From: a virus
Taxonomy: Duplodnaviria; Caudoviricetes
Reading direction: 5' to 3' (one strand)
DNA: 64,000 nt
IMG/VR virus record: IMGVR_UViG_3300047321_000298
Span: 160,001-224,000 of that record
The notes beneath the pieces are model-generated. The model did no database searches. It was not told the DNA's origin and worked only from the letters and a program-made list of their open reading frames with translations. Below, piece after piece: positions 37,328 to 63,333 of this stretch. Position 1 is the stretch's first letter, and each line of letters starts with the position of its first letter. Position numbers and translations under genes: made by a program.

Positions 37328-37627
37328 ATGGCTACTTTAGTCATAAATGTAAGCCGTGTACCGCAACAGGTTGGGCTGATCCTGTCGAATGGGGAGAAGT
37401 CGTATTCGCGAGTCATGGCCCGCAGTCGTGCACAGCTTCAAGACGGTGCGACAGTCGATCCGCACTGGCTCGCAATGAATCCGGGTGTGGTGAAAATCAC
37501 AGAGGTTCAACAGCCTGCGGTCGCGCAAGCAAAGACCAACGCATCAAAACCAGCAGTGTCTGTAGCTACACAGACTGCAACGACAAATACGGCAGAGACC
37601 GTCGCTAGCGATACGGGAGTCGAATAA
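37328..37627 (+). CDS. small tail-associated hypothetical protein
   Basis: RBS aggagg; coupled to the sheath start. Confidence 0.6.
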   Translation: MATLVINVSRVPQQVGLILSNGEKSYSRVMARSRAQLQDGATVDPHWLAMNPGVVKITEVQQPAVAQAKTNASKPAVSVATQTATTNTAETVASDTGVE

Positions 37628-39564
37628 TGACGATCTCCGCTAATCAGTCATCAAAAGTTATCACGCAAGAAATCAACCTGTCGCAAGTCGTTACTTCGGC
37701 TTCAACGTCAGTCGTTGCACAAGTCGTGGTGTCGAAGCAGGGTTCCACGTCCCCGATGCTGTTCACGAACGCTCAGGACTATCTGGCGCAGTACGGAAAC
37801 CCCAACGCTGCAATCTCGTTTGACGTGTATTGCGCGCTGGACTACTTCAAGCAGGGCAATCAGTTGTGGGCTTTGCGCGTAGCGGGTGCCGGGGCCCTGT
37901 ACTCGTCAGTGCTGATGTGGACGGACGGCAACCTGACGTACCTGACGCCGATTACTGCTGGCGTCACCGATCCGACTCAACCAGATTGGGCAGCGTTGCT
38001 CCCTGCGGGCACCGGCCACGAAGCTATCGCCTTGTTCTATCCCGCGATGGGTCCTGGCTCATATGCGGACAACTACGCAATATCGATTGCGTCATCGAAC
38101 ATTGCGACGCCTTCAGGTCTGGCGCTGGCTTCGAGCAATACAGGCGGAGTACTTCCCTCAGCAACATACGAGTATCAAGTATCGGCTGTGGGTGCGAACG
38201 GTGAGACTCTCGTTTCGCAGCCTGTGCAGATCGTGATTGCGGGTCCGCAAGTAACGAACAGTGTGACGTTGTCGTGGAATAACGTACCGCTCGCTCAGGG
38301 CTACAACATCTACGGCCGCACTGCTTCGGGGGTCGGCTACATCACGCAGGTTGGACAAGGAACGCTGACGTTCACGGACACAGGCGCGATCACTGTCAAC
38401 ACGAACAAGCAGCCCCTCGTGTCGCCTGCCGATCTGGAAGCACCGAATCCAGTGTTCACGGTTTCAGTGTTCAACACGGCACAAAGCTCCACATACCCAG
38501 TTGAGCAGTTCGATTGCTCGCTCGAAGACAACACAGATTCGACCGGTCTGGAAACTGAGCTTGAACAACGTATCAATCCGTTCTCGCAATTCATCCAGGT
38601 CACGTCGAACGTTCCGGCGCTCACATCAGCACCGGCTGTTGATTCGGTGGTTACAACGAACCTGGCTGGCGGCAACTCAGGTGCGGCTCCCACGTCAACC
38701 GACGTTGCTGGCGCATGGGACACGTTCTCGAACAAGCAACTGTATGCAGTGAACATCCTGCTGAACTCTGGGCATGCATCGCCAGATGTGCAGTTGGCGA
38801 TGGACTCACTGGCTCAGCGTCGTGGTGACTGCGTGGCGCTCCTTGACGTGCCCTCAGCATCACAGAAGTTCCAGCAGGCAATCAACTATCGCAATCTCCA
38901 GTTGAACCTGAACTCAACGTATAGCGCGCTGTTCTCGCCGGACGTTCTGGAAGCTGACACGATCAACGGCAAGCAGCAATACGTGCCGTTCTCAGGTCAG
39001 GCCGCTGCACGCTGCGCATATACCGATTCAGTTGCTAACCCCAGCTTCTCGATTGCTGGTCTGAATCGCGGGCTGCTGGATGTTCTGGGTACGCGCTATA
39101 CGTACGATGCGGGCCAAATGGATGCGTTGTTCCAGGCTCAGGTGAACTACACGCAAACGTTCGTTGGTCAGGGTACCGCACTCTGGGAACAACAGACGAT
39201 GGCCGCAGAAATGTCGGCGCTGTCGTGGGTATCAGTTCGCCGGATCGTCAACGTGATGAAGGTCGCGCTCTACAAGTTCCTGTTGTATTCGCTGCAGGAG
39301 CCGAACGACGACTTCCTTGGCCGTCAGATCGTTAGCTCATGTTCGGACTATCTCCAAACCATTCAGAACGCACGCGGCATCTCAGCGTTCTCGGTGGTGT
39401 CCGACACGAGCAATAACACGGCTCAGGACTTCAACACGGGCGTGCGTAACGTCACCGTGATCATCATCCCGACGATCCCGACGCACATCATCAACCTGCA
39501 AGTTGTGATTTCGCAGCAGGGCGTTTCGTTCACTGAAGCGCTTTCGCAGGTGAGCCCTGGTTAG
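37627..39564 (+). CDS. contractile tail sheath protein
   Basis: 645 aa; VITQEINLS N-terminus, RGDCVALLD, SIAGLNRG, WEQQTM...SVRRIVN, LQEPND sheath motifs. Confidence 0.92.
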   Translation: MTISANQSSKVITQEINLSQVVTSASTSVVAQVVVSKQGSTSPMLFTNAQDYLAQYGNPNAAISFDVYCALDYFKQGNQLWALRVAGAGALYSSVLMWTDGNLTYLTPITAGVTDPTQPDWAALLPAGTGHEAIALFYPAMGPGSYADNYAISIASSNIATPSGLALASSNTGGVLPSATYEYQVSAVGANGETLVSQPVQIVIAGPQVTNSVTLSWNNVPLAQGYNIYGRTASGVGYITQVGQGTLTFTDTGAITVNTNKQPLVSPADLEAPNPVFTVSVFNTAQSSTYPVEQFDCSLEDNTDSTGLETELEQRINPFSQFIQVTSNVPALTSAPAVDSVVTTNLAGGNSGAAPTSTDVAGAWDTFSNKQLYAVNILLNSGHASPDVQLAMDSLAQRRGDCVALLDVPSASQKFQQAINYRNLQLNLNSTYSALFSPDVLEADTINGKQQYVPFSGQAAARCAYTDSVANPSFSIAGLNRGLLDVLGTRYTYDAGQMDALFQAQVNYTQTFVGQGTALWEQQTMAAEMSALSWVSVRRIVNVMKVALYKFLLYSLQEPNDDFLGRQIVSSCSDYLQTIQNARGISAFSVVSDTSNNTAQDFNTGVRNVTVIIIPTIPTHIINLQVVISQQGVSFTEALSQVSPG

Positions 39565-42123: not shown

Positions 42124-42870
42124 ATGGATACGAATACTCTGTCAATCACCGACTTCGAAATGAAGACTCCGACCATCGCGAAGGTCGTCATTTCGTACAC
42201 GGGTGGTTTCAACAAGGAGAAGGTTCGCGCCTCTCTTCTGAAGATGCTGGACAACCGCGCTGCACCGGTTGAAGATTCCTTCCGCCAGGTGCGTGCGGGC
42301 GTCGCTGTCGGCTTCCTGCGGGCTAACCGCGAAGTGCGTGTTGTGGACCCGAAGGAACTTCGCGCATCGTATCGCGTCATGGGTTCATCGAACATCATGA
42401 TGAGCGAAGTCGATAACTCGCTGTGGGAAGTGAAGCAAGGCAAGGGCGGTACGTTCCTCGCTCGCCACGGTCAGGAAGACCTGTCGGAACTGGTCGAAAG
42501 CTCAACGCAGCGCCGCACCGATGTCCCGGGCATTCGCCACCTGCAACTGGCGAAGGCCGTATCGGGCGAGTTCGTGGCATTCACCTCGAAGTCTGGCGAC
42601 ATGGACTACGGTTTCGTTGTTGCTTCGAACTCGGAAAAGGTTAAGGTCGTTTCGACCACGACTCAGATGCCCGCCGTCGCTTCGTACGATATGGTGTCGT
42701 TCATCGGCCGCGCTCCGATTCCGAAGTCGTTCGCTCAGGACATGGTGAAGGCTGGCATCAGCCGCGAAGACAAGTCGCAGGCCATCGAGTACTGGAAAAA
42801 GCTGTACTCATACAACCCGGCCTACCTGCAAATGGTGATCGATCAGGTGAACGAGGGCACAGTCGCCTAA
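42124..42870 (+). CDS. probable highly expressed late/virion protein of unknown function
   Basis: Biased codons like the MCP; AATTTCAT upstream; terminator downstream. Confidence 0.6.
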   Translation: MDTNTLSITDFEMKTPTIAKVVISYTGGFNKEKVRASLLKMLDNRAAPVEDSFRQVRAGVAVGFLRANREVRVVDPKELRASYRVMGSSNIMMSEVDNSLWEVKQGKGGTFLARHGQEDLSELVESSTQRRTDVPGIRHLQLAKAVSGEFVAFTSKSGDMDYGFVVASNSEKVKVVSTTTQMPAVASYDMVSFIGRAPIPKSFAQDMVKAGISREDKSQAIEYWKKLYSYNPAYLQMVIDQVNEGTVA

Positions 42871-51200: not shown

Positions 51201-53479
51201 CATCATGCCAACGGCGCACCAAAGAGAGATGATTCAGCGCTGCATTCGTTCGGGTATCCCGATGGCGGAAAAGTTCGAGTACCCCGACGGTGTCAAAACC
51301 AGTGTTGGATACATGGCGCTCACCTACGAGAAGCGCGGCAACTACCACTACCTCAACGGCAAGCGTGTCGCCCGCAATTTCGTGCTCGATGCAGGGCACC
51401 AAGGTTTGGTAGGCGATTGAATACACGTTTCGCCCACACGGAAAAGGACATGATCACATGACGACCGACAAAGAGGCTCTGTTCAACTACCAGCTACTGG
51501 GCCGATTACAGCAGGACTGTGAGTACTATCTAGGTCACGGTAACCGAGCGAAAAAGCACCTTTGGGCCGGTGATGAAGCTGAGCAAATCGCAAAAATGAA
51601 AGAAATTTACGAAGGGCTGAGCGAGAAACCGGAGTGGATTTCGCTTGAGAAAATTGCCGAGTACGAAGCGGCAATGACTGCGAGTCAGTAGCCCCTTGGT
51701 GCAAGTCAGCAGCGACGACTGGGCTGGTGGTAGCAGAAGGGGTCTAAGGCCCCTTTTCTTCTGTTTATGTTGACGCTTTGTGCACAGGTCCGTATAATCG
51801 TTCTTGTGGTTGAGACTTTCCTGGAGAACGCGATGGACCGTTTCGTTGTGTTGGTTTTCGTTGGTGCTAGCGCTACCGTGATCGATGGCGAGCCGCTGAT
51901 CTGCGACGGCTGCAGCGATGAGGTAGAACTCGAAAACTGGGCTGTTGAGAAGTTCGCTAACGGCCGGGAAGTCTTCAACGTGGTTTGCGTTGCTAGCGAG
52001 CGGAACGCAATGGCGTACATCGCGCGGTTTGGCTACGAGTTTGTTGCGGAGTGAAAAATCATGGCACGTAAAGAGCCCCTGATGGTGCAGGTTAGCAGCA
52101 ACGGTCAGGTGATCGGCAAGCTGACGACTCAAGAATTCATGGACTACGCGAAGAAGAACTTCGGCATCGGTAGCCAACGTTTCCTGGGCGACTACGTGAA
52201 GTGTTTCAACGAGGGCAAGGCACGGATAGGTGAGCCGGAACGCGTTGAACTGATCCTCAACAAGTGAGCAGGTTCGGAGAACGAAGTGATCAAGCGTCCT
52301 GTTGGCGTTAGAAAGGCTCCTGAGCCGATCATGTGGTCGGTTGAGCATTTCGGCTACTTCCCGCCTGAGTATGGCCGTGAGGTGGCGGTGTTCTGGGACC
52401 AAGCTGCGGCCTATGCGTGCAGCGAAGAGCGCAACAAGTTTAACTACTGCACAGACGTTCAGGTCTATGCGTATGCGGATGAATAGCGGACGTGTGTCGC
52501 GCTAACGATGATGAAAAAGGAAAGGGTGGGCGATGGCACTAAAGGACGGCAATTATCTAGCCACGTGCAAGGAGAGGAACCCGTTGGCCGCTGCGGTGAA
52601 CGGGCACCACCGCGTGTGGCCTAATGCTACGTGTGTGGTCAAGAGAGGATTCGCGAGATTCAAGCGCGACGGTGACGAAGTCTGGAGTTGCAACGCGACT
52701 TACGCGGAAGCGCACTTCAAGCTCGAACCACTCGACTGATTTACTGTTGACGTTTTGTGCGTCGTTCTGTACAATGGGTTCTGTGGTGATCAGAAACGGA
52801 CTGGAGAACGAGATGGCACTGACGGCAACTCAAACGACTGGCGGGAGGGCTCTTCCTCAGTTCGTGCTTGAAATCCTGGCAACGAGATTTTCCCCGGCTG
52901 AAATCAGCATCATTGATCAGAACTGGAACCGATACAGCCAGATGTCTTTCAGCAATTCGTGTGCAGACGAATTCCTTCTCCAGGGCGACCTCATACTGAT
53001 GCTTGAAAGGACTTGATCATGGCAAGGAACTGGTTCATGAGTGGGTGCGATAAGTTCGGCAACCCCGAGGGTCAACGGCAGAACATCACTGAGGTGGTGC
53101 TCGATACCGCTGGTGAAGAAGTTTTTGATGCGAACAGCGGTGAGCAGGAGATGGCTGCTCAGGCACTGGTCGAAAGCGCGTACGGCACGACCGCTGGCTA
53201 CTGCAACGGCACCTACTGGACCGAGTGAGAAACTATGACAGCGACTATTATTTTCCGGAACGGACAAGGCGGATTTGTTGAGGCGTTCGAGGCAATTCGC
53301 CTTGGCTACGACTACGACGGCTATAACCTGTACGCTGGTGGCATCCGCCGTAACCCCATCGAAGTGGTGGAATGCACGGCTGTTGATGTAGCTGAGTCGT
53401 CCATTGACGGTGTGAGTTTCTTCCGTACAGAGACCGGCCGTGTGTACAAGACAATCCAGTGAGTGGTGACAGAGCCAAG

Positions 53480-53510
53480 AAAAAGCCCGGAATCCCGGGC
53501 TTTGCTTTTT
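53480..53510. terminator. bidirectional terminator at the convergent junction
   Basis: aaaaagcccgg-aatc-ccgggctttgcttttt between the + and - gene blocks. Confidence 0.8.
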
Positions 53511-53715: not shown

Positions 53716-54039
53716 CTATCGGTCTTGGCGAGTGTCCCAGACGCGCAAAAGAGCTATCGCAGTCGGTTCCTCAGAGTACGGGGGTAGAACTTCATAGTGC
53801 AATTCATAGCGCCCCGCCAGACATACCCAGCGATGAACTTCGCGTGCGGGAGGTCCATCGTAGCCGTCAAGCTCTTCACCGAGTCGGTGGAAGTGATCTT
53901 GTCCAAGCCGATCTGCTTCATCGAGTAGAGCATTGACGATACGTCGGGCCGCTGCTCCATCGTTGAATTTTTTCACGTGGTCAGCGATCAGCGCCAGGTC
54001 GGACATGGCTTTAGAAGTAGGTAGGACCTTGACCTTCAC
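53716..54039 (-). CDS. ParE/RelE-family toxin
   Basis: VLPTSKAMSDLALIADH...AARRIVNAL...GRYELHY...LLRVWDTRQD. Confidence 0.85.
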   Translation of the reverse strand: MKVKVLPTSKAMSDLALIADHVKKFNDGAAARRIVNALLDEADRLGQDHFHRLGEELDGYDGPPAREVHRWVCLAGRYELHYEVLPPYSEEPTAIALLRVWDTRQDR

Positions 54040-54305
54040 GCTTCGGGCACCGGCTGTTCGTTATCGGTTCCAATGCTGTCGGCCCAGACGCGTGCCTGAT
54101 CCATCGGGACGAATCGGCCCGCAGTCACATCGTCCAGTCCTTCCTGAATCAATCGACGCTTCTCCGCTTCTCGTGAGAGAAACTGGACCAGCGCTTTCTT
54201 GACGATCCACTGACGCGGCCGGTCAAGCAGCGCGGAGAGGGCGTCCACTTCCTGCGCTAGTTCGACCGGCACCTGAGCCGTGAGGGTTCGAGTTTCAGCA
54301 GTCAC
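54036..54305 (-). CDS. CopG/RHH antitoxin
   Basis: TLTAQVPVELAQEVDALSALLDRPRQWIVKKAL; GTGA overlap with the toxin. Confidence 0.85.
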   Translation of the reverse strand: MTAETRTLTAQVPVELAQEVDALSALLDRPRQWIVKKALVQFLSREAEKRRLIQEGLDDVTAGRFVPMDQARVWADSIGTDNEQPVPEA

Positions 54306-54335
54306 AGGGGCCTCCTATTGAAAACTAACTGAGTC

Positions 54336-54365
54336 TATTGTAAATCAATAAACCCGTCACTTCAA
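54336..54365 (-). promoter_or_regulatory. TA operon promoter with palindromic operator
   Basis: Minus strand TTGAAG-N17-TACAAT; TATTG-N5-CAATA at 54336-54350 overlaps the -10. Confidence 0.6.
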
Positions 54366-54390: not shown

Positions 54391-54984
54391 TCAGGCTGCG
54401 CTCTGTTGGCACGAACTGAGTTCCGCCTCCAGGGTTAAGAGTCGTTTTGATCGAGCTTTGAGCCGCTTAACGGGCGTCCCGAAATACATACCCCAAGGAT
54501 CGAGAGACTTCGTCACCAACGACATCGCACCAACGGACGATCCTTCACCGATCCGACAGCCAGGCAGGATGACAGTGCCCGATCCGACAATGACGTGTCG
54601 TCCAAGTCGGACCGGCGCAACCTTCACATTCAAATACTGACGAGGTACGGTCGGGTTCGTGAGCGCCGCGCCAGAGTAATCGTCCGACACGCTATAGACA
54701 CGCACACCCTGAGACAATCCACAGAAGTCCTCCAGTTCGATGCCTCCACCACCGGCCATAAAGCACATACCTCCGATGTGCACGTATGAGCCGATGCGTA
54801 TATGCCCGCTCGAAGCAGACAGGACACTGGGTCCGTCGATACGCACGTTACTCCCGAACGTCATGTTTTCGATGCCGACGACCGTACAGTTTTTCGCGAC
54901 CCTAACGTTGCTGCCCACGGAGGGCGAGCCGAACTGTTTCAATTCTTCTTCGGTCCAGTAGCCTGGATTGAGCGGGTTTTGCAT
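54391..54984 (-). CDS. hexapeptide-repeat (LbH) sugar acyltransferase, VioB/galactoside acetyltransferase-like
   Basis: Repeated [LIV]-G-x4 hexapeptides; SDDYSGAALTNPTVP; VGAMSLVTKSLDPWGMYFGTP. Confidence 0.88.
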   Translation of the reverse strand: MQNPLNPGYWTEEELKQFGSPSVGSNVRVAKNCTVVGIENMTFGSNVRIDGPSVLSASSGHIRIGSYVHIGGMCFMAGGGGIELEDFCGLSQGVRVYSVSDDYSGAALTNPTVPRQYLNVKVAPVRLGRHVIVGSGTVILPGCRIGEGSSVGAMSLVTKSLDPWGMYFGTPVKRLKARSKRLLTLEAELSSCQQSAA

Positions 54985-55197: not shown

Positions 55198-57365
55198 CTA
55201 CTCGCTCTCAAGTCGCGAGATTTCCTCATCCACTGTGGGTGGCGTAGGCAGACCGAGTTTTTTGCGTTCAGCGTCCACTGTCGGTCCGGTTCTTTCGTAG
55301 CCACCCAGCTTGATTTTGTGGCGCACAGCGCGCCCGTCAGGGAGCCACCCGTTGAACGCCCAATCGCTGCCATTGATGCGCCCATGCTTGCACAGGAATT
55401 CGTGCACCGCGAAAACGAGCTTCTCAAGCTCACGACTTTCACTTTCCGTGAAGCTGTCGAACATTGATGACTCCCTCAGATTTGACATAAATCTAATTAT
55501 CAACAATTGAACGAGCGTTCACTTTTCTGTCAAGGACCTGGCGCAGCAGCGGCCGGAAGCGTTGCTGTTCGCTTCACAATCTCGCCGTCCCGATACTCGA
55601 ACCCGTTTTCATCCATCCACGTCTGCGCAGCCTGAATGATCGCGTCGTCCAACATGAGTCTCTCGACCTCGTTGGCGGAAAGGCGAACGCCGGTTCCTCG
55701 AAGGCCAGCGCGATAGATGCGCGCGTGCGGATTGTCCTTTATCTCTTCCATTGCTATCCCTGTCGTATGTCTGTCAGGGTCAATGCTCGCAAACGATCAT
55801 CGTCGTCGTATGGCGACCCGTCCGTCAGCGCGCGCCATGAGATATAGACGCCATGAGCCATGCACCGCAGGACGTGTGCGCGTTCACCCTCAGCGGTTTC
55901 CGACGCCTGCTGCATCAACCTCTTAATTTGTGTTTCCGCATTCCGGGTAATCTGCTGGTGTGTCCAGCGCGTTGGATTGCTCATCGCGTGTTAGCCGATT
56001 CCCCGGCTGGCGTCCAACGCGGAGCCAACTGATCTTCGATGCGGGGGCGCTCTGTGAATCCAAGCCGAACCAAAAACTCGCGAACCTGTTCTTCGGTCTC
56101 GAACGGCCTAAAGTGTTGGGTGCCTGCGCTAAACCCCGGCTGGCAAATTTCGACCACAGGATAAGTACCAGACATCGCTTTGCGGCCGAACCGAAAAACT
56201 GCACCGGGTGCCGCGCGCTTGCCAACCTCGTCATTCATCGCGATCATCCAGCCGTCGATGGGTTCTGCGATAACCTTGGGACTGTCTTCCATTCGTTAGT
56301 TCTCCACAATGTCGATGACTGGTTGATTAGAGTTTACCGCCGACAGGTGAATCGAGGATGGCGTTGATGTTTTCGATATCGCCAAGGCCCGACAACTTGA
56401 TCAGCTTGGTGAGGTTTTGATACGAGACACTGATCGTCTGAGCTTCAACATCAATCTCGTTTTCGGCCACGATGTCTAGCACCAGTTCCTGCAGATCGGT
56501 TCTTCGCGGTGTGCTCACGTTAAGTCCTCATCAATGTAAATATCTGGCTTCTGCGTTTCGCCCGCAGCCGCCTGTTATTTCTTTTTGCCGTGCAGAATGA
56601 AAATACCGGGCGCTAGGTGCGTGATGTCCGGATCGGCCGGACCCTTTGCATAGCAGTGACCCGTTTGCGTGTCGAAGATAGCCCACCGCCGACCGCTCGA
56701 ATACGCGTCTTTCCAGCGAAGCGCCGAATCGTAGTCCGTGAAAGTGTCCAAGCTGTCCAGGCATTCACCCGTACTCTCGTAAATCTTGACCTCGTAACCC
56801 ATAACCGCCCCACTCCTAACTGTTCTGTACATCGTCTAGCGCTTGGACCGCATCGCTGAGGTCCGTCAGGTCCTCAATCTCATCGAGCGCTACGATTGCT
56901 GTATCGAGACTATCAACCGCAGCTTCCGCTGTCTCCCCTCGCTGCCCTGCCCTCAAACTTTCCGGCATGTTATCGAGTGCTTCCTGCTCTTCATCTCGCA
57001 CCGCTTCGAGTGTGGTTCGGATACTTTCGCCCTCCGCTTTCAGTTCTTCGATCAGCACCTTCAACGCTTCAAGACGCGAACGCTGCGTCTGGATGATTTT
57101 TCGTCTAGTGCCGTTCATAGGATTAGAGTTGAGCGCGTCCGGAATCCGTCAAGCGCACGGCTCTATACATGAGCCCCTGCCCTTTGGCGATAAAACAGCT
57201 AGGCGCGCTTGACTGCACCTCTTCGTCGCTCACGAGTTCAGCGAGCCCCTTCGCCATGAGCGCATCGAGCGCCGATCCGTAGCACTCTCCATACGGGCTG
57301 AATGGTGCCTCTCCTAGCCACTGTAGCAACCGGCGTTCTGTGCTGTTCAGTTCGATCTGTGTCAT
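55198..57365 (-). other. leftward run of small hypothetical genes
   Basis: CDS 55198-55464, 55530-55751, 55754-55984, 55981-56292, 56327-56518, 56575-56832 (start uncertain), 56816-57118, 57123-57365. Confidence 0.7.
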
Positions 57366-57606
57366 CCGGCCTCCGCTTATGCACAGGGTTGTGCACCGAA
57401 ATTGTGGACAACCTCCATCCCCTCTGCAAGCCGATTTTCTCTGCATTTGTGTGCGCGGTCGCGGGGCAGACAGTTAGTTGTGTTTTGCGGCAGTCGCCGA
57501 AAATTTCCCCAGCGCCCTGCCCTCCCCTACCGTCGATCCTTCATCCTAGTTCTAGCTTTCTCCCGCAAACCCAGGCTGGATAAGGCTTACCCAGGGAAAA
57601 GTTAAC

Positions 57607-57679
57607 TTGCAGAAGATGAGTTAACCGTATACATTCCGACCAATTCGCCATTTTACGGAAGTTGCAGCGAAAAATGGCG
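57607..57679 (+). promoter_or_regulatory. putative parAB promoter with operator-like repeats
   Basis: TTGCAG-N17-TACATT; GTTAAC at 57601 and 57620; inverted repeat CGCCATTTT/AAAATGGCG at 57646-57679. Confidence 0.45.
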
Positions 57680-57724
57680 ACCACTTCAGTAAATAACCAC
57701 ACTGCCAATGAAGGGGAGTCCAAG

Positions 57725-58945
57725 ATGCTCGTTGCCAAACCAATCGTATCTATCGAACACTCTGTCAAGCACACTCCGAACCGTGTGGCCCTAGACGACA
57801 TTGAGTTCATCGCACAGAACGCGAGCGAGATGCTGATGAATGTGCGTGAGAGCATGCTTGCTCCGCATCCGCGAAAACACGCGCCTGTGTTCACAACCTC
57901 ACAACTCGCGTCGCTCTGCCAGGTGGATCGCAAGAAGATCAACTATTACTGGGAGAAGCCTGAACTCGGCCTGCCCCAAGGCACAGTGCTGCCGCGTACG
58001 CGCGAATTCACGCTGGTCGAAGCGCGCGAATGGGTCAAGAAAGTTGGCCCGTACCTGAAGCGGCCGGACGGTGTTAAGGGCAAAAAGATTGCAATCGGAA
58101 ACTTCAAAGGGGGCGTCTCCAAAACTACAACAGCGATGACTCTGGCTCAGGGCCTGTCGCTGCGCGGTCGGCGCGTGCTGATAATTGATCTTGATCCGCA
58201 AGCATCGCTCACCGCGTTGAACGGAATCTTGGCTGACAGCGAAGTCAATGAAGACCAAACGATTCTGCCACTCATTTACGGTGAAGCGGACTCGCTCGAA
58301 TACGCGATCCAGCCGACGTACTGGGATGGTATCGACCTCATTGCGGGCAGTCAGTCTTTGTTCAGCGCTGAATTTTACCTTCCCTTCAAGCAGTCACGCG
58401 AACGCGAATTTCGTTTTTGGGAAGTGCTGGAAAAGGGCTTGGAACCTCTGCTCGATCAGTACGACATGATCATCATCGACACGCCCCCTGCCCTCTCCTA
58501 CGTTACGATCAACGCGTTCATGGCCGCAGACGGCCTGATTGTTCCGACTCCGCCGAACGCACTGGACTACGCATCGTCCACGCAGTTCTGGTCGCTGTTC
58601 ACGGACTTCGCACGGAGCATGAAACAGATCGTGCCGGACCTGAACAAGCACTTCGATTTCATCCACGTCCTGCTCGCTAAAGTCGATCAATCGCAGGCAG
58701 CAACGTTCGCCGTGCGCGAGTGGATTAACCGCACGTACGAGCGTCATGTGCTGCCGGTTGAGATTCCCACGACGACCGTGACATCGAGCGCATCGACCGA
58801 GTTCGGGACCGTCTACGATATCTCGAAGTACGACGGCAGCAATAAAACCTACCAGCGGGCGCGTGAAGCATACGACCGATTTGCAGAGATGATCGACCAG
58901 GAGATTTTCGCGCTGTGGACCTCTGAACTGGAGGTCGCAGCATGA
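57725..58945 (+). CDS. parA: type Ia plasmid partition ATPase
   Basis: N-terminal HTH extension; KGGVSKTT deviant Walker A, DLDPQASL, DTPP; RBS ggggag before ATG 57725 (ORF is open from 57662). Confidence 0.95.
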   Translation: MLVAKPIVSIEHSVKHTPNRVALDDIEFIAQNASEMLMNVRESMLAPHPRKHAPVFTTSQLASLCQVDRKKINYYWEKPELGLPQGTVLPRTREFTLVEAREWVKKVGPYLKRPDGVKGKKIAIGNFKGGVSKTTTAMTLAQGLSLRGRRVLIIDLDPQASLTALNGILADSEVNEDQTILPLIYGEADSLEYAIQPTYWDGIDLIAGSQSLFSAEFYLPFKQSREREFRFWEVLEKGLEPLLDQYDMIIIDTPPALSYVTINAFMAADGLIVPTPPNALDYASSTQFWSLFTDFARSMKQIVPDLNKHFDFIHVLLAKVDQSQAATFAVREWINRTYERHVLPVEIPTTTVTSSASTEFGTVYDISKYDGSNKTYQRAREAYDRFAEMIDQEIFALWTSELEVAA

Positions 58946-59973
58946 GCATTAAGGAGAAAATGGCGGCCCGAACTGCGGCGATTGCAAGCCCCAGCGGTAA
59001 CCGGCCAGTCGAACCGCTAGCTCGCCCGAAAACTGGTCCAGGTCAGTTTCTGGCCGCAATGCCGATCCTTGCAGAGAAAGAGGAAGAACTGGAAAAGGCG
59101 AACGCTGAGAATGCAAGTTTGCGCGAGCAACTTGAGCAGGCGTTGGCGAATGGAAATCCATTGGGCTCCGCCGTTGAGGTTCCGCTCGATCAACTTCATG
59201 AGGTCCCTGGGCGTCGGCGCTACATGCCCCGCGAAAAGTACATCGAACTTCGCGACAACCTGAAAACCACCGATTTGATTCATGCGGTGGTCGTCCTGCC
59301 ACGTGAATCAGGTGGCTACGAAATCTGGTCCGGACACCATCGGGTGGACGCGTATCGCGAGCTTGGCCGCACCACGATCATGTGCGTCATGGGCAAGGCT
59401 GAAAAGGCTTCTGTCAGCGCCGGGGCGTTCTACGCAAACCTGATGCAGTCGGACCTGACCGATTTCGAAAAGTACCAGGGCTTCAAACGAATTCAGGAAG
59501 AAAACCCGGGCATCACGCAAGCGCAGATGGCGGAGCGTGCGGGCGTAGCAACTTCCGTCCTTTCCCGGTTGATGTCATTTGAGCAGCTACCGGAACCAGT
59601 CCTGCAGATGCTGAACGAGCGCCCTGCTTTGCTTGGTGCGACCTCTGGCAGCGCACTCTCCGGACTGGCCGCAGAGGGGAAAGCAGAACGTGTAATTGAA
59701 GCTGTGCAGAAACTGGCGAAGGGCGAAATTGACCAGACACAGGCCGTGAAGCTGGCGAGCACGGAACCGGCAAAGCCCAAAGAAACGAAGAAGGCAGAGC
59801 GGGTAAAAGTTCGCGTTGGCAAAGCCGTGTATTGCAGTATGAGCACGGCACGCAACGTTGTGCGGATGGAATTTCAATCGGAAGAGGAAGCCGCAGCAGC
59901 TAGGGAAGGGCTAACGGCATTTCTGGAAGCACGGGCCGAAGAATTACGGGCGCAGGCACAGGACGAAAAGTGA
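58942..59973 (+). CDS. parB: ParB partition protein
   Basis: SGHHR (GxxR CTP-binding motif), HTH TQAQMAERAGVATSVLSRLM; ATGA coupling to parA. Confidence 0.93.
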   Translation: MSIKEKMAARTAAIASPSGNRPVEPLARPKTGPGQFLAAMPILAEKEEELEKANAENASLREQLEQALANGNPLGSAVEVPLDQLHEVPGRRRYMPREKYIELRDNLKTTDLIHAVVVLPRESGGYEIWSGHHRVDAYRELGRTTIMCVMGKAEKASVSAGAFYANLMQSDLTDFEKYQGFKRIQEENPGITQAQMAERAGVATSVLSRLMSFEQLPEPVLQMLNERPALLGATSGSALSGLAAEGKAERVIEAVQKLAKGEIDQTQAVKLASTEPAKPKETKKAERVKVRVGKAVYCSMSTARNVVRMEFQSEEEAAAAREGLTAFLEARAEELRAQAQDEK

Positions 59974-60007
59974 AAGTCCTTTTGAATCAAGGACTTCCAA
60001 GTTGGAA
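59974..60007. promoter_or_regulatory. candidate parS-like palindromes
   Basis: AAGTCCTT-N7-AAGGACTT (59974-59996) overlapping TTCCAAGTTGGAA (59995-60007) directly after parB. Confidence 0.4.
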
Positions 60008-60050
60008 CTTCTGAGGAACACGCAATGAACTGATTCTGAGGCGGGAAAAG

Positions 60051-60082
60051 AAAAAGCCCTCGGCTGGAACCGAAGGCTTTTT
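60051..60082. terminator. hairpin/terminator upstream of repA
   Basis: aaaaagcc...ggcttttt. Confidence 0.6.
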
Positions 60083-60228
60083 GCATAAAAGGGCTCGGCT
60101 GGAAATCCGTTCCCCGCACTACACTCACCGACTGGAAATCGGCAAGGACCTCAACAATCCCGAGTGTAGCGGAACGAGATTGACAGTCAAGTGAATTCAG
60201 CCATTTTCTGAAAAATGGACTGCACAGC

Positions 60229-61461
60229 ATGTCAATCGCGCAACACTCCGTTGCTGGCGAGGGTGAAGCTCGCCCCCAGCAGTCAGTACCCGCCGAAGTC
60301 TCAAACGATGCAGCCGCCCTTGCCGCGTTTCGCTGCGATTCGATCAACCTTCCGTGGGTTATCTTTCGCGCTGCATTCCGCGCAAACCAGATCGAACAAC
60401 TGCCAGCACGCGCACGTTCTGTTCTCGCTGCCCTAGCCCGTACAGTTGACGCTAATCGCCCGTTCGCTGCGATCTTTGCCCGCCGTGAGTTATTGACCGG
60501 CCGCGCAATGCAATCGATGCGCACGTTCTATCGCAGCCTGGACGACCTAGAAGCCGCAGAACTCATCGAACGTCGTCCGCAATCCCGCTACGTTGAAGTC
60601 GGTCGATTCGGCCGTGCGAATTTGCATCTCACAGAGCGCGCAGTGGTTCTTCTTGGATTGGTTGAGGTGCAGGCCGAGCAACTCCCTACAGCGCCCGCAG
60701 AAACGGCTCAGACGCCCTCACATGCCGTCCGGATGCAGACCGCAGAACCCAGCGTTTCTTCGTTTATCCGCCCGACTGCCAACGTGGCAGACGGTGCTAT
60801 ATATGGTGATCTTTACCCTGCTTCTTCTCAAAAGAGACAACCGGGGCAACTGCCTGCGGACCTCCAACGTCTGCGGTCCCTGGGTTTCATTGATTTCCTG
60901 ATTTTCAAACTCATGAAGGAAGCGCGAGAGAATCGCAAACGGCTCTCCGACGTTGTTGAAGCTACGTGGGAACATCTGAAGGCTGCGAAGCGACCGATCA
61001 ACTATCTGCGTGCGCTGCTTCGTAGCCCTGTCGATTTCGCTCATCAATTGCGAAGCAAGGCCGAAGCTCGACACGCGGCACAACGTCAAGTCGAACGCGC
61101 AGCGAACGCGGAACTCATTGCACAACGGTGTGCAGGACAGACGTTTATCGACACTGACGGCCAGCGCAAGTACGTGCTCGATACGGACGGCCAGTCCATG
61201 ACGGTGTACGTTCGTGGCGAAGGGGTGGGGCGGCAGGCTGCAGGCTGGAAGGAGCAGTTCGCAGAGGCGCTTGAGAAGGGACGCATTCGTCGTGCTGCGC
61301 TCGATAACTTGGAGGCGTTTGGTCCGGCACCCACACAGACAGCGAGAGCGTCAGCAGGGGAGGGCCACACCGCGAACGTAAAGCCACCGGTTACCGCTCA
61401 AGTCCGTAGCCACATCGCTGGATTGCGTGCCATTCTTCGCACACAGCGGAGTATTATGTAA
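60229..61461 (+). CDS. repA: plasmid/chromid-type replication initiator (wHTH)
   Basis: LPARARSVLAALARTVD...SMRTFYRSLDDLEAAELIERRPQ wHTH; follows parAB as in Burkholderiaceae secondary replicons. Confidence 0.8.
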   Translation: MSIAQHSVAGEGEARPQQSVPAEVSNDAAALAAFRCDSINLPWVIFRAAFRANQIEQLPARARSVLAALARTVDANRPFAAIFARRELLTGRAMQSMRTFYRSLDDLEAAELIERRPQSRYVEVGRFGRANLHLTERAVVLLGLVEVQAEQLPTAPAETAQTPSHAVRMQTAEPSVSSFIRPTANVADGAIYGDLYPASSQKRQPGQLPADLQRLRSLGFIDFLIFKLMKEARENRKRLSDVVEATWEHLKAAKRPINYLRALLRSPVDFAHQLRSKAEARHAAQRQVERAANAELIAQRCAGQTFIDTDGQRKYVLDTDGQSMTVYVRGEGVGRQAAGWKEQFAEALEKGRIRRAALDNLEAFGPAPTQTARASAGEGHTANVKPPVTAQVRSHIAGLRAILRTQRSIM

Positions 61462-61520
61462 GGAGTACATACTACATTAGACGAACGCTGCGCTTGGGTG
61501 TCGTGTTGATGGTTTGCGAT

Positions 61521-61609
61521 TCCGTGAAACACTTCGGAACCTAGCTGAAAACGGGCAAACGTTTGGCTATTCAGCGACTTGGCGCTAGGTCCTCAGTTTG
61601 TTTCACGGA
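61521..61609. repeat. long bulged inverted repeat downstream of repA
   Basis: tccgtgaaaca/tgtttcacgga, acctagc/gctaggt, gctgaa/ttcagc around central caaacgtttg. Confidence 0.65.
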
Positions 61610-61755
61610 TTTGTCAGGAAATCCCTACGCGGATCGAGCAAAACGGCTCGTTTTCTGGCCTAGCGCACGCGGCGCACAGCATTCGCTGGAAACTGTAGTG
61701 AATGCTACGTATTTTGTAATGACGAAATTCTTGGCCACCACTCGCGGAAAACGTA

Positions 61756-61783
61756 TTGACGTTTTGTGCAGACGGCGTAAAAT
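61756..61783 (+). promoter_or_regulatory. sigma70 promoter with the 15-bp element
   Basis: TTGACGTTTTGTGCA; TTGACG-N16-TAAAAT. Confidence 0.8.
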
Positions 61784-63304: not shown

Positions 63305-63333
63305 TTGCACAAAACGTCAACATCCCCTATACT
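63305..63333 (+). promoter_or_regulatory. sigma70 promoter with reversed 15-bp element
   Basis: TTGCAC-N17-TATACT; tgcacaaaacgtcaa (63306-63320) is the exact reverse complement of the consensus. Confidence 0.75.

Follow-up and report, generated by a model that had tools for sequence, protein, structure and literature searches.

Phage P1 carries parABS with RepA, a phd/doc addiction pair and dispersed C1 operators. In the biocontrol of Ralstonia and Burkholderia, jumbo phages of the phiRSL1/BcepSauron type are studied as strictly lytic agents. By its operational definition, a phage-plasmid has phage core genes and plasmid replication/partition genes on one extrachromosomal replicon; such elements include KS-14 of Burkholderia and reach 241.8 kb (PMC7969092). 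Among Firmicutes, jumbo plasmid prophages include pBtic235 (PMC9700832) and TubZ-partitioned phages (PMC7824862). The Bsr partition families of Burkholderiales secondary replicons have clustered 16-bp palindromic parS sites with a central CG near parAB (PMC5450999). Here we describe a parA-parB-rep cassette of plasmid type in a stretch of 64,000 nucleotides (the window, to which all positions refer unless stated otherwise), which comprises bases 160001-224000 of the 245,517-bp virus record IMGVR_UViG_3300047321_000298, assigned here to a jumbo myophage. The cassette is best explained as a functional low-copy plasmid maintenance unit.

The parA-parB-rep cassette and its plasmid relatives

The cassette consists of three intact open reading frames (ORFs) in the same orientation, parA, parB and rep, at the place where an earlier reading of the bare sequence (the original prediction) had announced a complete parA, parB and repA. 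That reading had the parA gene in the right position with a start at 57725, but this is an internal ATG of an ORF that runs from 57662 to 58945, and the ATG at 57674 is the one conserved with plasmid homologues. The parA ORF has 423-427 codons, its ATPase domain begins near residue 140, and the deviant Walker A motif (KGGVSKT) is intact. The product matched Pfam AAA_31 (5.5e-37) and the PHROG ParA family (1e-56), and its best curated match was the repABC RepA model TIGR03453 (1.5e-61), at 208 bits, below the cut-off of 348. ParB matched HTH_ParB at 25.7 bits (cut-off 22.6) and ParB_N at 22.8 bits, just below the cut-off of 26.3, as well as PHROG ParB families with E-values down to 7e-20. A large ParA (~400 aa) with an N-terminal DNA-binding extension and a deviant Walker A motif, and a ParB with ParB_N and helix-turn-helix domains, are the features of a type Ia ParABS system. 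The closest phage ParA among 50,697 phage records was only 29.5% identical, and P1 ParA was 26% identical.

By tblastn, 87-100% of the product of the third gene aligned at 50-60% identity with a gene in each of 125 plasmid or chromid records of Burkholderia, Caballeronia, Paraburkholderia, Cupriavidus and relatives, and the identity rose to 67% with the nearest named Paraburkholderia homologue. In the plasmid records inspected, this homologue directly follows a large ParA and ParB and is annotated as "Replication protein O" or as hypothetical; several megaplasmid and chromid records have it at their origin (e.g. position 1 of NZ_AP024326.1). In the AlphaFold2 (AF2) model, residues ~43-145 form an N-terminal winged-helix domain, and the C-terminal part is modelled confidently as a helical/beta domain. 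Searching the PDB by sequence and by profile returned nothing significant, Foldseek returned only generic MarR-type winged-helix matches (E ~1e-2), and the fold match to RepC of NGR234 was weak. Language-model neighbours were the protein's own family, followed by HTH_36, RepL and RepC clusters, and the Pfam models RP-C and RP-C_C gave no match at E up to 10. The label rep was accepted because of the plasmid homology and position, the winged-helix model, and the fold and language-model neighbours. To our knowledge, no member of this family has been characterised experimentally.

When the region was compared with plasmids by blastn, the match was confined to positions 57788-61060, at ~70% identity and in the order parA-parB-rep, and in the alignment the similarity stopped at the rep stop codon. 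The same search with the whole module against the 50,697 phage records found nothing, nor did tblastn with Rep. The four phage copies of Rep form one clade nested among Paraburkholderia and Caballeronia plasmid Reps (bootstrap 84; clade recovered in 86% of bootstrap trees). An ancestor of the jumbo-phage lineage would have taken the cassette from a megaplasmid of Paraburkholderia/Caballeronia type.

Elsewhere the window carries genes for the head (portal-like protein, protease and major capsid protein), for the tail (sheath and tube) and for a large helicase. The capsid protein shares 82.5% identity with those of Burkholderia phages BcepSauron and BcepSaruman, 76.5% with that of Ralstonia phage phiRSL1, 73.5% with that of Burkholderia phage BCSR5 and 62% with that of Achromobacter phage Motura, and from the helicase to the tail tube the genes are collinear with those of BcepSauron. 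Because of these identities and this gene order, the virus is, on sequence grounds, a phiRSL1/Sarumanvirus-like jumbo myophage. A jumbo-type myophage of a kind associated mostly with lytic isolates had been predicted, and a Burkholderiaceae host, likewise predicted, is the best inference. Protein-level matches to complete jumbo phages cover 42-43% of the genome, which has a G+C content of 54.6% and 11 tRNA genes and was rated complete by CheckV. The circularity of the contig had been left as a point to check: its last 127 bases repeat its first 127, indicating a circular assembly (a circularly permuted linear virion genome would give the same picture), and an independent contig, G001, spans the end junction unbroken.

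The original prediction held that the cassette is part of the phage genome, and this was confirmed by comparison of assemblies. In G001 (IMG/VR, 153.7 kb, ~97% nucleotide identity), the cassette is present with the same genes on either side. L066 and L067, which come from other runs and are more diverged, contain the same small-gene island, leftward genes and parA-parB-rep, and L067 also shares the downstream AAA, DnaB and helicase genes, so that the same junctions occur in four assemblies from different samples. Contig depth in an independent rhizosphere sample was flat over the left flank, the cassette and the right flank (91, 102, 106, 96). Identity among these phages is 72-91% for ParA, 55-67% for ParB and 72-78% for Rep, the Rep range over all sister phages being 72-95%. 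The ratio of nonsynonymous to synonymous substitution rates (dN/dS) among the phage copies, with synonymous sites saturated, was 0.04-0.27 (parA 0.04, versus L067; parB 0.10-0.11; rep 0.14-0.27). The cassette is kept under purifying selection in at least four phage assemblies.

Similarity among the phage copies is mosaic: L067 is the closer of the two diverged contigs in ParA (91% identity, against 72% for L066) and the more distant in Rep (72%, against 78% for L066). This pattern suggests recombination within the cassette among phages.

ParA and Rep are absent from two complete or near-complete relatives, G003 (217.6 kb, with terminal repeats) and G002 (230 kb). The cassette lies in an accessory island of 23.7 kb (42.9-66.6 kb in window coordinates). 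In G003 the counterparts of 42124-42870 and 66596-67960 are only 420 bp apart, and in G002 1.7 kb; synteny with BcepSauron also ends at 42870. Next to the island, the DnaB-type helicase of L067 (L067:14618-17320, 900 amino acids (aa)) carries an intein, with Intein_splicing and LAGLIDADG matches, and its orthologue in the present genome (window-equivalent 66596-67960, 454 aa) has no intein.

Non-coding elements and neighbouring genes

The features of the region are listed in Table 1. The parB-rep spacer is strikingly conserved with plasmids and contains a putative antisense RNA gene. Its promoter, TTGACT-16-TACACT at 60190-60163 on the minus strand, has both hexamers within blocks GAGTGTAGCG and GACAGTCAAG, which are invariant in 13/13 gathered phage and plasmid sequences. 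The terminator hairpin (60049-60082) has T runs on both sides, and its stem is kept by compensatory changes around a variable loop; from promoter to hairpin, the predicted transcript is ~110 nt. The consensus fold was better on the minus than on the plus strand (-29.7 vs -18.6 kcal/mol), and the 9-bp stem-loop of the RNA uses G-U pairs at which the plus strand would have mismatches. In 12 sequences, RNAalifold found 22 pairs, 6 of them with double compensatory changes. The match to the Rfam family ctRNA_p42d was weak and below threshold (E 0.24, score 22 vs 50). We regard the spacer RNA as a putative antisense copy-control RNA, by analogy with that of repABC replicons.

Table 1. Positions of the cassette, its non-coding elements and its neighbours in the window.
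Feature	Position	Strand	Basis or remarks
Accessory island	42871-64000, on to ~66.6 kb past window		Small genes behind repeated phage promoter elements; holds replicon
ParE-family toxin	53716-54039	-	Pfam ParE_toxin 5.3e-08, above cut-off; L067 copy 88% identical
Antitoxin ORF	54036-54305	-	Overlaps ParE start; phrog_25976 1e-22; L067 homologue has RelB3_C
Hexapeptide-repeat acyltransferase	54391-54984	-	Pfam Hexapep 6.8e-11
Leftward run of ~7 small ORFs	55198-57118	-	ORF list; function not assigned
80-aa winged-helix-like protein	57123-57365	-	First gene of leftward unit, divergent from parA; candidate regulator
Divergent control region, parA promoter/operator	57447-57673		Repeats and plasmid-conserved blocks
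parA	57662-58945	+	Type Ia partition ATPase; N-terminal extension ~130 aa
parB	58942-59973	+	Centromere-binding protein; ORF overlaps parA stop
Inverted repeat AGTCCTT-N7-AAGGACT	59975-59995		Directly 3' of parB; candidate parS/operator
Putative antisense RNA gene (like a counter-transcribed RNA, ctRNA)	60045-60190	-	Promoter, 5' stem-loop, intrinsic terminator
rep	60229-61461	+	410 aa; putative replication initiator, Burkholderiaceae "Replication protein O" family
Non-coding block after rep	61462-61755		~295 nt; conserved among phages only (G000, L066, L067), not plasmids
First phage promoter/operator element right of replicon	61756-61783	+	TTGACGTTTTGTGCA-type element

The same antisense RNA candidate was seen at L001:4807-4930, L064:5710-5833, L065:5742-5865 and the metagenome loci L074-L080. 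No Rfam family reached its threshold, and the candidate parB-rep antisense RNA of Burkholderiaceae megaplasmid and chromid replicons may be an undescribed family of copy-control RNAs with a repABC-like layout. A conserved candidate of this kind in a large, uncharacterised Burkholderiaceae replicon family suggests that repABC-like copy control occurs outside the Alphaproteobacteria.

The perfect copy of the inverted repeat behind parB is unique in the window and overlaps an WATCAANNNNTT string resembling a site for integration host factor. Plasmids and sister phages have a dyad at the equivalent spot with other arms and a conserved AAATCAA core, and in sequence the dyad looks as a specificity-determining centromere or operator would, which makes it a candidate for either. 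Nowhere in the genome does a palindrome of 14 or 16 bp occur in multiple copies. In the control region upstream of parA, AAGTTAACTT at 57599 is a palindrome, AGTTAAC recurs at 57619, and an inverted repeat spans 57645-57680; the short blocks AAAGTTAACTTG and GTTTACCGTnTACAT are conserved in alignment with three plasmids. In the block that follows rep there are an inverted repeat (CCGTGAAAC / GTTTCACGG) and two hairpins, one at 61635-61650 and one at 61678-61706, the loop of the latter again reading GCTGGAAAC; the block could serve as a phage-specific origin or as a binding site, or could encode a small RNA. A likeness of three CTGGAAA motifs to the iterons of B. cenocepacia pBC was considered and dropped, as pBCJ2315 uses TrfA, which is unrelated to Rep; the first of these motifs is the terminator loop, which is variable in sister phages.

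No DnaA-box cluster was found at the cassette, and the cumulative GC skew tracks the direction of transcription and did not locate an origin. Outside the window, 122 kb before its first base, genome positions 37500-37840 hold an AT-rich tract and, after it, a series of 9-mers that resemble DnaA boxes and all lie on one strand. This array includes the only perfect TTATCCACA of the genome; G001 conserves it, and G002 and G003 have it in weaker form or not at all. Replication could start there with host DnaA, though the array is ~62 kb from rep on the circle.

The promoter element that the original prediction had noticed on both sides of the replicon is present as described. With up to 2 mismatches, the 15-bp element TTGACGTTTTGTGCA, followed by GTAnAAT, was found 17 times in the window, between 3094 and 63320, against 0.19 expected; genome-wide there are ~33 copies, ~31 of them on the plus strand. 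It provides a -35 hexamer in both orientations, and the reversed copy at 63306-63320 reads TTGCAC with TATACT at 63328. Between the copies at 52747 and 61756 there is none, a gap of 8 kb that holds the cassette. The spacer motif TnTGTGC was seen only in the four replicon-bearing phages and is missing in G002, G003 and the first 50 kb of BcepSauron, where the promoters have other spacers; its co-occurrence with the replicon is weak evidence, because it concerns one single lineage. The 15-bp element may be an operator for a lineage-specific regulator.

Within the gap, a plus-strand terminator is located at 53482, and the ParE toxin-antitoxin pair sits 3.4 kb left of the cassette. The antitoxin gene has a promoter-like site of its own and an inverted repeat at 54331-54365. 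The adjoining acyltransferase is possibly a lysogenic-conversion gene for surface modification. Most small ORFs of the leftward run had no Pfam or PHROG match; the only one with a family is 56816-57118 (phrog_4068, 7e-24; 71% identical in L066). The 80-aa protein gave an AF2 model with a predicted local distance difference test score of 76 and a predicted template modelling (TM) score of 0.67. Its structural neighbours in the Atlas were PadR, MarR and DUF2250 proteins (TM 0.64-0.76), and its homologues are confined to sister phages and two fragments from metagenomes. Together with the cassette, the toxin-antitoxin pair, the acyltransferase and this winged-helix-like protein would form an 8-kb block with its own sigma-70-type promoters. 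As the block is without the 15-bp element, its layout is the one expected if it stays expressed while the lytic genes are off.

Proposed maintenance of the phage in its host

The reading that we favour, with a probability of about 0.6, is plasmid-type maintenance of the phage in a Burkholderiaceae host, either as a true plasmid prophage or in a stable plasmid-like carrier state. As in type Ia ParABS systems, ParA and ParB would segregate the 245-kb circular genome via a centromere next to parB. Rep would start theta replication through its N-terminal winged-helix domain and with host factors, and the antisense RNA of the parB-rep spacer would curb rep expression and so set the copy number, as in repABC replicons. 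The neighbouring ParE/antitoxin pair would punish loss of the element. The genetic picture agrees with this reading: a partition and putative replication unit that is complete and under plasmid-type control, an addiction module, promoters that set a maintenance block apart from the other genes, and lasting conservation under selection. The original prediction had seen no integrase in the window, none is present there, and no tyrosine integrase (Phage_integrase), serine recombinase (Resolvase) or S24 repressor was found in the whole 245.5-kb genome.

Several observations weigh against plasmid-type maintenance. The cultured relatives BcepSauron, phiRSL1, BCSR5 and Motura are known as lytic isolates and are without the cassette, and toxin-antitoxin pairs occur in lytic phages too. 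No sign of carriage in isolates was obtained, since the capsid gene had no match in 72,556 PLSDB plasmid records and was found in 185,579 species genomes as one fragment of a metagenome-assembled genome only, and since all named capsid relatives in a large protein database were phage isolates, the rest being unnamed. Only metagenomes of the rhizosphere and of plants, and no RNA data set, were found to contain the phage DNA, and its residence in a line of cells has thus not been observed. The Rep ORF matched nothing in Pfam, PHROG or NCBIfam when E-values up to 10 were admitted; rep is the best reading of this ORF, its role being drawn from homology, position and fold. Bsr-type 16-bp parS palindromes with a central CG were not present near the cassette, and for the origin (iterons) and the centromere there are at most candidate sites. 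For a lysogeny repressor, the modelled winged-helix protein of 80 aa is a candidate and none was identified with confidence; a fold search of the PDB with this protein gave MarR-type matches that were not significant.

Part of this evidence would also fit a phage that is essentially virulent and uses the cassette in productive infection or in a transient carrier state (pseudolysogeny), with Rep serving an early theta origin and ParAB positioning or partitioning genomes in slow-growing soil hosts. Jumbo phages do use cytoskeletal and partition proteins, and pseudolysogeny has been discussed for them (PMC7824862). The lytic relatives, a repressor that is only a candidate, and the searches of plasmid, species-genome and protein collections that found no carriage in isolates also speak for it. 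However, complete close relatives replicate without the cassette, and a plasmid-type control that limits copy number, with an antisense RNA and autoregulated promoters, would be counter-productive for lytic amplification. The cassette is moreover without the phage promoter element, and the adjacent toxin-antitoxin pair suits vertical maintenance, and on balance we think this explanation unlikely. We give even less credit to the idea that the cassette is an exclusion device, in which Rep, ParB, the antisense RNA or the centromere would be incompatible with resident megaplasmids and chromids or with co-infecting sister phages. The closest homologues belong to chromids and megaplasmids of Caballeronia and Paraburkholderia, which probably occur alongside the hosts of the phage; the antisense RNAs of repABC-type cassettes are strong incompatibility determinants, and the mosaic ParA/Rep similarity suggests diversifying exchange. 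For interference one component would suffice, whereas three genes and the cis region are all intact and under purifying selection, and the Rep identity of 50-67% together with the differing dyad arms points to cross-reaction that is avoided, not exploited.

That the cassette is an assembly chimera, or a decaying and functionless passenger piece of plasmid DNA, is very improbable. The genome is a metagenome assembly, and the same samples contain homologous plasmid sequences of other organisms, which show up as low-depth loose ends at 58799-60262. Against this, the same junctions were recovered in four assemblies from different samples, depth is flat at ~91-106 over the junctions, the ORFs are intact with dN/dS of 0.04-0.27, and phage promoter elements stand on either side; the chimeric contig that the original prediction had named as one possible refutation was not encountered.

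Plasmid-type maintenance, if true, would place a sister lineage of the biocontrol phages in its hosts as a resident 245-kb plasmid, which would change the view of their ecology, host range and biocontrol safety, and it would be a natural case of one captured module making a virulent giant phage vertically inherited. A wider scenario can be put forward as a tentative possibility. In it, a branch of a virulent jumbo-phage clade would have turned temperate without integration, by capture of a chromid-type parA-parB-antisense RNA-rep unit and by a genome-wide switch in which a 15-bp asymmetric operator at ~31 early promoters is read by a lineage-specific small DNA-binding protein (e.g. the 80-aa product); P1-like immunity would then have evolved independently. 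The complete candidate maintenance unit is small enough for a 4.4-kb clone, which opens the case to a direct test.

Comparison with described systems

In the literature, no report was found of such a replicon in the phiRSL1/Sarumanvirus-like clade, and a recent preprint on the clade (Matilda) mentions none. Phage-plasmids as such are already known, and a replicon in a clade regarded as lytic is a moderately surprising implication. As in the operational definition of phage-plasmids, the genome has structural and packaging genes and a partition system, with a circular replicon and no integration module. Its collinear helicase, protease, capsid, sheath and tube genes are those of BcepSauron/BcepSaruman and phiRSL1; unlike the present phage, these lack ParA, Rep, the content of the 23.7-kb island and the TnTGTGC spacer motif.

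With P1 and the jumbo plasmid prophages pBtic235 and c-st the phage shares the lack of an integrase and the presence of a type Ia ParA/ParB, a Rep gene (here putative) and a toxin-antitoxin pair on a phage genome. The short asymmetric element at many promoters recalls the dispersed C1 operators of P1, and the size class (235-245 kb) is that of pBtic235 (PMC9700832). There is, however, no sequence kinship with P1, whose ParA is 26% identical and whose Rep is unrelated. The phage differs from all three in its phiRSL1/Sarumanvirus-like betaproteobacterial backbone and its replicon of Burkholderiaceae megaplasmid type, and in that lysogeny and a repressor are here proposed by inference.

Like repABC, the cassette has the order ATPase, centromere-binding protein and initiator of ~400 aa, with a putative antisense RNA between genes two and three, and its Rep weakly resembles RepC in fold and features. 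The alphaproteobacterial repABC family is nevertheless distinct: the models TIGR03453, RP-C/RP-C_C and ctRNA_p42d were not reached, and the hosts here are Betaproteobacteria. Because these protein and RNA models are not satisfied, the likeness is one of mechanism and not of membership; by inference, the cassette works like repABC without belonging to it. Its nearest counterparts are the parAB-rep units of Caballeronia, Paraburkholderia and Burkholderia (BTHE68_p2, PAMC 28687 plasmid 1, pSBC1_4), which agree with it in gene order and sizes, in ~70% nucleotide identity of the coding parts, and in the conserved parA promoter blocks and parB-rep spacer. It differs from these units in lying inside a virus, in having its own dyad arms and in a Rep that is at most 67% identical to those of plasmids.

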